Origin: an uncultured archaeon
Lineage (GTDB): Archaea; Aenigmatarchaeota; Aenigmatarchaeia; Aenigmatarchaeales; Aenigmatarchaeaceae
Length of the DNA: 39,319 nucleotides
Direction: 5' to 3'
NCBI GenBank assembly: GCA_964651405.1
Contig: CAZYZB010000001.1
Span: 6,888 to 46,206, forward strand
In this document: piece by piece, positions 15,472 to 17,290 of the stretch
How the letters are laid out: every line of letters starts with the position of its first letter
Numbering within the stretch: the first letter of the stretch is position 1
The notes under the pieces: model-generated
What the model was told of the DNA's origin: nothing
The model's input: only the letters and a program-made list of their open reading frames with translations
Databases searched by the model: none
Position numbers and translations under genes: made by a program

Positions 15472-16356
15472 GTGAATCGTATGTTTGAAAAAATAGTATA
15501 TTTTGTTTTATTTTTAGTTATCGCAGTTGTTTTCATATTTTTAGCAGCGCCAATACCAGTCTTAGCAGCATATAACACAACTGACATAGACATTAACATT
15601 TCTGAATTGTCGCAAATAACCCTGATGCCAACTTATTTGAACTGGACGCAGATAATTACAGGAACAACAGGTGGTCATAAAAACATAACTGTAAAGAACA
15701 TAGGCTCAGTAAATGTCTCGCAGATTTATGCGTACGTTAATACATTGCTAAATGAAACTACAAGACCCTATGGTTCTTCTGATGCATCAAAATATTCAGC
15801 CGGTGGCGTACTAACAATTAGAAATGAGACCGATGCAAAGTATTATTACCTAGGAAAGTTAGAATGGAACTGGACAGAAGACATACCAACTCATGATTGG
15901 TCAGATTTGACTAACATTACTTCATGGGGGTATTTCAGAAATCTAACAGATTCTTATGTTTGGGCAATTGGTGGAACTAATGGTACTTGTAATAATACTC
16001 TAGTCCAATTGGCATTGGAAAATGACAAAGATACAGGTGTTTCAGAAACAAGGTACCCGAGAACCAGTAACATAACTAATAACGGTGCTGATGCAAATTG
16101 GTCTTATTTCAGTGTTGTCGGTGAACCTTTATACGGATACTGCATAGCAGTTTACAAGGATTGCCAAAAGATATACATTTATAATTTCGATGAAAGAACA
16201 AGTCCAAACTTTCAGACATGTACAGAAGCTGACCATCTATACTATGGGAACTTAACTCCAGGAGACACAATCATACTAAAAGTTGATCCTTGGGTTCCTT
16301 GGGGAACTCCAGCAGGAAACTTAACTCAAACAACTTTAACAGTAGTAGGCTCTTAA
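15472..16356 (+). CDS. Secreted sequon-rich protein, tandem paralogue A (candidate surface or filament subunit)
   Basis: The Sec-type signal ends ...APIPVLA, followed by AYNTTDIDINISE. The likely start is ATG 15481 (the track uses GTG 15472). By eye it is ~90 percent identical at nucleotide level to paralogue B in the N-terminal half, and near-identical over the last 141 nt. Confidence 0.75.
   Translation: MNRMFEKIVYFVLFLVIAVVFIFLAAPIPVLAAYNTTDIDINISELSQITLMPTYLNWTQIITGTTGGHKNITVKNIGSVNVSQIYAYVNTLLNETTRPYGSSDASKYSAGGVLTIRNETDAKYYYLGKLEWNWTEDIPTHDWSDLTNITSWGYFRNLTDSYVWAIGGTNGTCNNTLVQLALENDKDTGVSETRYPRTSNITNNGADANWSYFSVVGEPLYGYCIAVYKDCQKIYIYNFDERTSPNFQTCTEADHLYYGNLTPGDTIILKVDPWVPWGTPAGNLTQTTLTVVGS
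16216..16356 (+). repeat. Near-identical 141-nt 3' block shared by the tandem paralogues (copy 1)
   Basis: The block acatgtacagaagctgaccatctatactatgggaacttaactccaggagacacaatcatactaaaagttgatccttgggttccttggggaactccagcaggaaacttaactc... has only about 3 mismatches against 17150-17290. Confidence 0.85.
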
Positions 16357-16390
16357 TAAAAGTGTTTCATAAACTAAACAAAGAAGAATA

Positions 16391-17290
16391 ATGCATACGA
16401 TAATCGATATAATTTTAATTATAATTTTATTTTCTTTAATACTTTTTGTGCAAATAAACCTAATGCCAACATTAGCAGCATATAACACAACTGACATAGA
16501 TATTAACGTTTCTGAATTTTCTCAAATAACCATAATACCAACTTATTTGAACTGGACGCAGATAGTAGCAGGAACAGCAGGCGAGCATAAAAATATAACT
16601 GTAAAGAATACTGGTTCAGTAAATGTCTCACAAATCTATGCATATGTTGACACTATAACAGACGAGACTACAAGACCCTATGGTTCTTCTAATGCATCAA
16701 AATATGCAGCCGGTGGCGTACTAACAATTAGAAATGAGACCGAGGTAAAGTATTATTACCTAGGAAAGTTAGAATGGAACTGGACAGAAGATATATCAAG
16801 CCATGATTGGAGCAGTGTAGCTAGTCCGGCATCTTGGGGGTACTTCAGAAACCTAACTAACTCTTACGTATGGGTAGCTGGAAATGGTACACCTCCAGAC
16901 GACGACCCAACAGGTATATATTGTAATGATACGGGCTCGGAGTTCGCAATAGAAGATGATATAGATACAGGTGACTCTACAACAAGGTATCCGGATGACG
17001 GTTCAATAACTAGAAACAGCGGAGATGCGAACTATGGATACTTTAGTGTTTCAAGAAATACTGCACCTTTGTATCAGTATTGTGTGGCAGTAGCTGCAGA
17101 CTGCAAAAAAATATATATTTATAACTTTGACCAAAGAACAGGCTTTGCTACATGTACAGAAGCTGACCATCTATACTATGGGAACTTAACTCCAGGAGAC
17201 ACAATCATACTAAAAGTTGATCCTTGGGTTCCTTGGGGAACTCCAGCAGGAAACTTAACTCGAGCAACTTTAACAGTAGTAGGCTCATAA
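16391..17290 (+). CDS. Secreted sequon-rich protein, tandem paralogue B
   Basis: The signal ends ...NLMPTLA, followed by AYNTTDIDINVSE. It has the same architecture as paralogue A but a diverged central segment with indels (GNGTPPDDDPTGIYCNDTGSEF...). Confidence 0.75.
   Translation: MHTIIDIILIIILFSLILFVQINLMPTLAAYNTTDIDINVSEFSQITIIPTYLNWTQIVAGTAGEHKNITVKNTGSVNVSQIYAYVDTITDETTRPYGSSNASKYAAGGVLTIRNETEVKYYYLGKLEWNWTEDISSHDWSSVASPASWGYFRNLTNSYVWVAGNGTPPDDDPTGIYCNDTGSEFAIEDDIDTGDSTTRYPDDGSITRNSGDANYGYFSVSRNTAPLYQYCVAVAADCKKIYIYNFDQRTGFATCTEADHLYYGNLTPGDTIILKVDPWVPWGTPAGNLTRATLTVVGS
17150..17290 (+). repeat. Near-identical 141-nt 3' block shared by the tandem paralogues (copy 2)
   Basis: The details are as for 16216-16356; the offset between copies is 934 nt. 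Confidence 0.85.

Follow-up and report, generated by a model that had tools for sequence, protein, structure and literature searches.

Recurrent gene conversion and two conserved signal classes in a tandem pair of putative secreted glycoprotein genes of Aenigmatarchaeota

Concerted evolution by gene conversion is known for tufA/tufB of enterobacteria and for tandem surface-antigen and pilin paralogues. Among clusters that encode secreted proteins, the WxL clusters of Firmicutes combine secreted WxL proteins with WxLIP, a membrane-anchored protein with two Ig domains. The TasA superfamily comprises the fibres of TasA, AbpX, the AbpA bundling pili, the CanA/CanX cannulae and the Sulfolobus threads (PMC12518558, PMC9245690, bioRxiv 10.64898/2026.01.04.697558). 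Here we describe a tandem gene pair, A and B, that shares features with each of these systems. The pair lies in a 39,319-nucleotide (nt) stretch of DNA, hereafter the window, from an uncultured archaeon of the Aenigmatarchaeaceae (contig CAZYZB010000001.1, positions 6,888 to 46,206 of the forward strand; host genome 784 kb, 90% complete), and all coordinates below refer to this window. A literature search found no description of the A/B family or of its cluster. The signal-coding parts of A and B have stayed in two separate classes, while the mature-coding parts have been converted recurrently. The reading that we favour, and regard as quite likely, joins this mechanism to a role: an ancient tandem pair whose mature parts are kept in concert by recurrent short-tract conversion, and whose products serve as a subunit of a surface assembly.

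A and B share 72% identity with 16 gap positions (BLASTP). Their silent divergence, followed along a codon alignment in a Nei-Gojobori sliding window, is patchy, with a synonymous divergence (dS) of 0.03–0.14 in three tracts (Table 1) and of 1.23–1.98 elsewhere. Tract 2 holds a single synonymous difference across 28 synonymous sites. Tract 3 has three mismatches in 141 nt and contains the longest identical run of 112 nt, a length reached by none of 2,000 permutations in a column-permutation test (p ≤ 0.0005). An initial annotation of this DNA had described the two open reading frames (ORFs; 294 amino acids (aa) for A counted from a GTG codon, 299 aa for B), diverged signal peptides, a diverged centre with indels and a near-identical 3′ end of 141 nt, and had suggested ongoing gene conversion. 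All of this stands: the signal-peptide regions are effectively unrelated (39% aa identity), the centre (aa 136–248) carries three indels, and dS falls to nearly zero in the tracts. Its statement that the first ~130 residues are highly similar conceals a mosaic: aa 31–60 and 95–135 are homogenised, but over aa 61–94 a dS of 1.23 means that the silent sites are anciently diverged and the protein is merely conserved. The tracts accordingly number three (aa 31–60, 95–135 and 249–294) and do not form the two conserved ends that had been proposed.

The sister genome L010, represented by a 381-kb metagenome contig, carries an orthologous pair in the same gene neighbourhood, in which L010a has the A-type signal and centre, and L010b (protein P0007, 89% identical to B) has the B-type signal and centre. 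Across alignment columns 781–870 the paralogues A and B are 100% identical, while the orthologous comparisons A/L010a and B/L010b reach 93–95%. The dS of the 3′ tract is likewise lower between the paralogues (0.03) than between the orthologues (0.23 and 0.35), and conversion of this tract therefore post-dates the split from L010. Across columns 211–390 it is L010a and L010b that are 98–100% identical, compared with 77–88% for A/L010a and 92–97% for B/L010a, from which it follows that copy b overwrote copy a in the L010 lineage. Residues 61–94 have a dS of 0.06 in the L010 pair versus 1.23 in the window pair. Different tract borders, and paralogues that resemble each other more than they do their orthologues, mark conversion as recurrent and specific to each lineage, with events of its own in each after the two had separated.

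A survey of 17 complete tandem pairs from public contigs extends this picture. Identical runs are significant in 16 of them (p ≤ 0.004, column permutation), the longest being 788 nt in L048, 417 nt in L119 and 277 nt in L050, and the homogenised part of the gene differs from pair to pair. In the window and in L010 it comprises the N-terminus, aa 91–135 and the C-terminus; in L003, L088 and L091 aa 136–165 are 97–100% identical; in L050 and L119 aa 166–250 are 98–100% identical, with just 56–62% identity over aa 33–60. The signal region is diverged in all 17 pairs (26–56% binned nt identity), and conversion never enters the signal-coding 5′ end, so that two signal classes are preserved on co-evolving bodies.

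The centre of the window pair shows what has not been converted. Its nt identity is 53–70%, dS is saturated at 1.98, the nonsynonymous divergence (dN) is 0.355, and the resulting dN/dS ratio (omega) of 0.18 indicates purifying rather than diversifying selection. Between orthologues the omega of the centre is 0.14–0.31, and the centre holds all four cysteines that are invariant in the family along with other invariant residues. The proposal that the termini are conserved interfaces around an exposed, diversifying centre is not supported: with a homogenised tract that moves across the 17 pairs and a centre under purifying selection, conserved ends and a diversifying centre are no functional rule. 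The A-type centre is conserved in L010a and the B-type centre in L010b; the two types have coexisted since before the window/L010 split, a situation specific to the window's clade. Selection for two centre variants is possible.

The family tree groups the paralogues of one genome together, with mature parts clustering by lineage. Taken alone, this clustering suggested several recent duplications, an explanation that we rejected on the conservation of the second signal class across deep clades. The first gene of a pair carries a signal of the sigA class (M-N/F-E-K followed by a LLAISIAFLLST-like stretch), and the second gene one of the sigB class (M-x-T ... IILIIILFSL..F). This order is kept in the window's clade and in the L003/P0027, P0020/P0042/P0043 and P0021/P0033 clades (P0021 is the second gene of its pair). 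The pair is thus ancient, the duplication being older than these deep clades and the mature-coding parts having evolved in concert since. The sigB class is also conserved where the mature proteins have diverged by ~45% (P0007, P0020, P0021, P0027, P0043 and window positions 16391-16480). A cleavable signal peptide is seldom conserved to this degree, which suggests that the class does more than provide generic targeting to Sec. In L048 (L048:4989-6833; CAYFXV010000001.1, a 197-kb contig) the two mature proteins are 100% identical and the signals 13% identical; why a single protein should retain two export signals is a puzzle.

The array also changes in copy number. The close relatives L007/L008 and L009 have identical synteny and one gene instead of two. 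This single gene matches the signal of A and L010a at 88–97% nt identity and the centre of B and L010b at 81–98%, compared with 53–73% against the A centre. A single gene with sigA and a B body is the product that would be expected from recombination between direct repeats within a homogenised tract. Every single-copy gene inspected carries sigA, in keeping with collapse by recombination. Expansion occurs as well, as shown by tandem triplets: L056:4020-6854 contains three family genes in tandem, all in the same reading frame, and further triplets lie in G040:C2 and G019:C4.

In sum, the sigA of first genes and the sigB of second genes remain separate while the bodies behind them evolve in concert. 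Three tracts are currently homogenised in the window, and conversion of the 3′ one is younger than the separation from the closest relative sequenced. The centre may escape since it has become too diverged, in identity and through indels, to pair, and recombination between the same repeats can delete the interval, which would leave single genes with sigA and a B body. The locus resembles established cases of concerted evolution in its patches of near-zero dS within diverged paralogues, in the greater likeness of paralogues than of orthologues, in its lineage-specific borders, in identical runs beyond chance and in occasional collapse. Unlike in cases of the tufA/tufB type, conversion always stops before the signal-coding 5′ end, and two signal classes have long been preserved.

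Two other histories would give a similar locus. The second copy could be young, a divergent allele having been inserted into a single resident sigA + B-body gene by a Campbell-type crossover in the conserved N-terminal region, with the single-copy state ancestral. The predicted product, sigA-N-centreA-C followed by sigB-N-centreB-C, matches the observed structure exactly, the single-copy genes all carry sigA, and the single-copy state is also found in P0005 and P0006, whose branches lie immediately outside the window's clade. We nevertheless find this history very improbable: at least four further deep clades (L003b/P0027, P0020/P0042/P0043, P0021/P0033 and P0026/P0046) have sigB on the second gene of a pair, which places the two-gene state before those clades, and the pair is shared by L010, where the A-type and B-type centres are orthologous to those of the window. 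An assembly artefact, in which reads of two strains or of repeats were mixed in the contig of a metagenome-assembled genome, is harder still to credit. Such contigs can be chimeric across repeats, and the identical tracts are about as long as a read or a k-mer, but the same arrangement with its A and B types was assembled independently in the 381-kb contig of L010, in L011 and in more than 30 other loci, and the patterns of the tracts agree internally and vary among genomes in a way that makes phylogenetic sense.

The products of A and B belong to a family of ~300-aa proteins, none of them with a Pfam domain, that counts 120 close homologues and 182 representative clusters; the named matches are almost all annotated as 'Candidatus Aenigmatarchaeota', which places the host among the DPANN archaea. 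Of 301 genomes of the phylum that were sampled, 97 have the family, all of them in the window's class, with one to five copies that often stand two or three in tandem; identity across the class is 40–60%. Three members carry other labels (P0089, Heimdallarchaeaceae; L081, Dehalococcoidaceae; L046, Anstonellales), lie on short contigs in unrelated bins, and are probably binning errors, not real occurrences outside Aenigmatarchaeota.

A 50-member alignment shows a signal of ~30 aa ending in V/T-L-A|A, a conserved mature N-terminus, (A)-Y-N-T-T-D-I-D-V-N-V-S-x-x-S-Q-I-T, four invariant cysteines and no C-terminal anchor. The N-x-S/T sequons have a median of 12, with six positions kept in at least 47 of the 50 members; A itself has 16 sequons and 4 cysteines. 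By sequence and model, the protein would be a Sec-secreted, heavily N-glycosylated, anchorless β-sandwich of ~265 aa. The initial annotation had called the signals Sec-type and not prepilin-type, and the length of the signal, its cleavage motif and the β-strand-like mature N-terminus agree with this when read from the sequence. Type IV pilins and archaellins have a class III signal peptide, with a short charged leader, a prepilin-peptidase site and a hydrophobic N-terminal helix that stays in the mature protein; judged by eye, the signal here is not of this class, since the mature N-terminus is polar (AYNTTDIDINVS) and the model is otherwise all-β. Searches of Pfam, NCBIfam and PDB sequences with A, B, the 50-member alignment and a 66-member remote alignment returned nothing usable, the only hints being sub-threshold (choice-of-anchor-D, and an ASH-like match over aa 44–109).

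The AlphaFold2 monomer model, built from 50 sequences, is all-β and confident (predicted local distance difference test, pLDDT, of 92.6; predicted TM-score, pTM, of 0.82). Residues 25–48, which span the last part of the signal and the N-terminal extension, have no secondary structure in it, the pLDDT drops to 65–68 for residues 21–40, and the conserved 15-residue N-terminal extension is unpaired. Mean-field direct coupling analysis (DCA; 316 sequences, Meff 247) gives contacts that agree with the model, e.g. of strand 46–50 with 71–81. The couplings Y223-T249 (rank 2) and T172-D230 (rank 43), beside the cysteines of A (window ~15988-16221), point to probable disulfides C224-C250 and C173-C231. 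DCA also links the N-terminal extension to residues 111–112 and 282–287 (D38-G111, rank 53; I41-G282, rank 56; D38-Q286 and N35-T287 at lower ranks), and these couplings suggest that the extension docks at a defined site.

In all long loci, the family genes stand between two fixed neighbours, a divergent operon that begins with p322 and a convergent gene for a membrane-anchored giant protein of ~1,960 aa. Across the 301 genomes the family and p322 occur together in 86, the family alone in 11, p322 alone in 12 and neither in 192 (Fisher p = 5e-49); p322 adjoins the family in L003, L005, L007, L009, L010, L179 and L181. The p322 and p247 proteins have a common Ig-like domain (hhalign 87%), and the divergent operon goes on with a 798-aa CarboxypepD_reg protein (p798), a MinD-type ATPase and more genes. 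Comparison of p322, p171 and p247 with the family by hhalign found no relationship, so they are not paralogous minor subunits, and no signal peptidase gene was found in the cluster. From this context and the predicted fold, A and B most plausibly encode a structural subunit of the surrounding surface assembly. The anchorless exported protein would be built into an assembly whose other parts may be p322, p171, p247, the winged-helix regulator, p798, MinD-type ATPases and the anchored giant. It would probably dock through its conserved N-terminal strand (T-I-D-V-N-V-S), and its partner could be a further subunit, which would make a fibre or a lattice, or one of the anchored proteins with Ig domains.

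Table 1. Features of the A/B locus in the window; functional assignments are predictions.
Feature	Position	Strand	Description
Paralogue A	15472..16356	+	ORF, 294 aa counted from GTG 15472; predicted sigA-type Sec signal, ~aa 1-32, then ~262-aa mature secreted glycoprotein
Paralogue B	16391..17290	+	ORF, 299 aa; predicted sigB-type Sec signal (MHTIIDIILIIILFSL...), mature part ~270 aa
Signal-coding parts	A 15472-15567; B 16391-16480	+	
Conversion tract 1	A 15562..15651 (aa 31-60)	+	B partner 16472-16561; dS 0.14
Conversion tract 2	A 15754..15876 (aa 95-135)	+	B partner 16664-16786; dS 0.04
Conversion tract 3	A 16216..16356 (aa 249-294 + stop)	+	B partner 17150-17290; dS 0.03
Unconverted A-type centre	15877..16215 (aa 136-248)	+	B-type counterpart 16787-17149
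AAAGTTTATATA, BRE/TATA-like archaeal promoter element	15431..15442	+	~30-40 nt upstream of the A start; read from the sequence
Divergent intergenic region, 44 nt	15428-15471		Between p322 (-) and A (+); common to the p322 operon
p322	14459..15427	-	Signal peptide, two Ig-like domains, C-terminal transmembrane anchor; divergent from A
p171, p247 and 71-aa winged-helix regulator	12911..14471	-	p171: N-terminal transmembrane segment + β domain; p247: secreted, Ig-like; synteny, same operon
71-aa winged helix-turn-helix (wHTH)	12911-13126	-	
Giant surface protein, 1,967 aa	17291..23194	-	NPCBM_assoc/NEW3 + MG2 (Pfam), coiled-coil stalk, C-terminal transmembrane segment, cytoplasmic tail

Several findings weigh against a structural role of this kind or limit its reach. 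The function is read from gene context and a predicted fold, and a Foldseek search of PDB and BFVD gave no match with E < 1e-3 (best E = 0.01, TM-score ≤ 0.38). The DCA couplings of the extension are compatible with cis and trans contacts alike. Across the 301 genomes, the family is patchy: several sister genera lack it, and so do the other families of the window's order. A protein so distributed is not indispensable to the envelope across the phylum. An archaeal S-layer protein forms the two-dimensional lattice of the envelope, is abundant and occurs throughout its lineage; the presence of the family in 97 genomes with gaps in sister genera argues against a universal envelope role of this kind. 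The family and p322 occur in many orders of the class and are missing from those other families and from 7 of the 10 genera of the window's family, a cassette-like distribution that could stem from repeated loss or from lateral transfer of the whole cluster. On the evolutionary side, the chimeric single genes could come from assembler collapse across an identical tract longer than the k-mer.

Among more specific functions, the donor-strand-exchange fibre offered by the initial annotation, of the kind formed by TasA, CanA, threads and bundling pili, with the termini as interfaces and an exposed centre driven to diversify, is a live minority hypothesis, which we hold to be unlikely. It accords with a Sec-exported, anchorless protein whose conserved N-terminal extension alternates hydrophobic residues (I-D-V-N-V), is unpaired, has lower pLDDT and is coupled to residues 111–112 and 282–287, and with tandem arrays of two or three paralogues, as in the CanA/B/C and AbpX loci (PMC12518558). 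The weak top Foldseek matches in PDB include the CanA cannula (prob 0.5–0.8), the TasA fibre, chaperone-usher pilins and many lectin- or carbohydrate-binding-module (CBM)-type sandwiches, and are enriched for donor-strand-complementation subunits (CanA 7uii, 9h8b and 9hdi, TasA 8aur, FimA, FimI, HdaB); 9h8b scores E = 0.029, prob 0.80 and TMt 0.38, and 8aur E = 0.056 and prob 0.28. However, none of these is significant, the Peptidase_M73 profile PF12389 matched neither the 50 members (at E ≤ 10) nor the genome, a local TasA-like profile made from nine PF12389-positive Aenigmatarchaeota ORFs gave hhalign probabilities of 22% and 7%, and hmmsearch of PDB with two profiles was empty. The evidence from a fused dimer cuts both ways. 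The L010 genes are in the same frame, and reading through three TAA codons gives a 605-aa chain (P0268), modelled with a 12-row alignment of P0268 and 11 similar read-through pairs. The extensions turn into β-strands (33–38 and 339–344), but the model is poor, with pLDDT 60.6, pTM 0.44 and ~30 on these strands. The pattern of conserved ends and diversifying centre is not general, the omega of the centre is 0.14–0.31, and the cluster has neither paralogous minor subunits nor a signal peptidase gene. A soluble lectin-like or adhesin module with a ConA-like jelly roll, binding glycans of a host or of the cell's own giants and duplicated for dosage or for two specificities, seems to us improbable. 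Weak Foldseek matches to the SasG A-domain and to legume-lectin-like, CBM66, DUF1080, LamG-like and discoidin-like folds, a genome of DPANN size beside giant adhesin-like neighbours, and the stable maintenance of two centre types would suit it. All such matches are non-significant, the identity across the class is unusually high for a host-recognition protein, the centre has no sign of positive selection, and both mature proteins are identical in L048.

Set beside the TasA superfamily, A and B are alike in the Sec signal, the predicted anchorless β-sandwich, the conserved β-like N-terminal extension and the tandem paralogues, and members of the superfamily are their best, if weak, Foldseek neighbours. 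They differ in having no sequence or profile similarity to it, a mature part of ~265 aa versus 150–230, four invariant cysteines, ~12 sequons and no adjacent signal peptidase. Their cluster also differs in its MinD ATPases, C-terminally anchored Ig proteins and 1,960-aa giant. A more daring version of the structural-subunit reading, which we think rather doubtful, makes A and B the polymerising subunit of an undescribed, Aenigmatarchaeota-restricted fibre or lattice. The N-terminal strand would dock on the 111–112/282–287 edge of the next subunit or on p322, MinD-type ATPases would position the assembly, and the two signals would feed two pools of nearly the same subunit, e.g. nucleating and elongating. 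Its fold would be a new and very distant branch of the donor-strand (TasA/CanA-like) proteins or convergent with them.

The WxL clusters offer a likeness of layout only: anchorless secreted A and B lie beside p322, which has a signal, two Ig-like domains and a C-terminal transmembrane anchor. Unlike those clusters, this one has no WxL domain and belongs to an archaeon without peptidoglycan. No match to WxL, WxLIP_PGBD or WxLIP_HBD exceeded the Pfam threshold, with single sub-threshold matches of WxLIP_HBD in one p322 orthologue (E = 0.006) and of WxLIP_PGBD in one family member (E = 0.006). As in SPEARE-type and other DPANN surface clusters, the pair has giant anchored adhesin-like proteins and MinD-type ATPases on its flanks, but the A/B proteins are small, lack an anchor and are far better conserved than the SPEARE-type giants. 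We also weighed the arCOG01314-associated 'novel secretion system' (Makarova et al. 2015, PMC5898192) as the identity of the cluster and rejected it on its composition, which includes MoxR and vWA but lacks MinD.

The start of A is likely the ATG at 15481, nine bases inside the GTG, where the 291-aa database copy of A and the orthologues begin with MFEK. The element AAAGTTTATATA may act as the promoter of A. On the opposite strand of the same 44-nt intergenic region, a TTATAAAT-like box lies ~30 nt from the p322 start, and the two boxes look like back-to-back promoters giving near-leaderless transcripts. A and B are probably co-transcribed, given that the spacer between them is 34 nt and shows no TATA-like box. 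In lineages with a spacer of ~365 nt, each subunit gene has its own divergent wHTH regulator; in L116 (2373-2630, minus strand) an 85-aa winged-helix gene that resembles the 71-aa wHTH of the window lies in such a spacer. At the other end, the TAA stop of B (17288-17290) directly touches the stop of the convergent 1,967-aa gene (17291-17293), leaving no space for a terminator between them. L003, L007, L009 and L010 have this arrangement too.

Gene conversion between tandem paralogues is textbook biology, of which this locus is a clean natural example: an old pair with lineage-specific tracts, collapse to chimeric genes and two signal classes that never convert. The protein itself is a well-conserved, confidently folding and phylum-specific candidate secreted glycoprotein with neither a Pfam family nor a significant structural neighbour. 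Its genes are linked to a conserved surface cluster in DPANN archaea, whose cell-surface biology and contact with hosts are largely unknown. Should the protein indeed be a subunit that assembles itself, the known surface structures of archaea would gain a new one; if it is not, it would still provide a good handle on the envelope of Aenigmatarchaeota.

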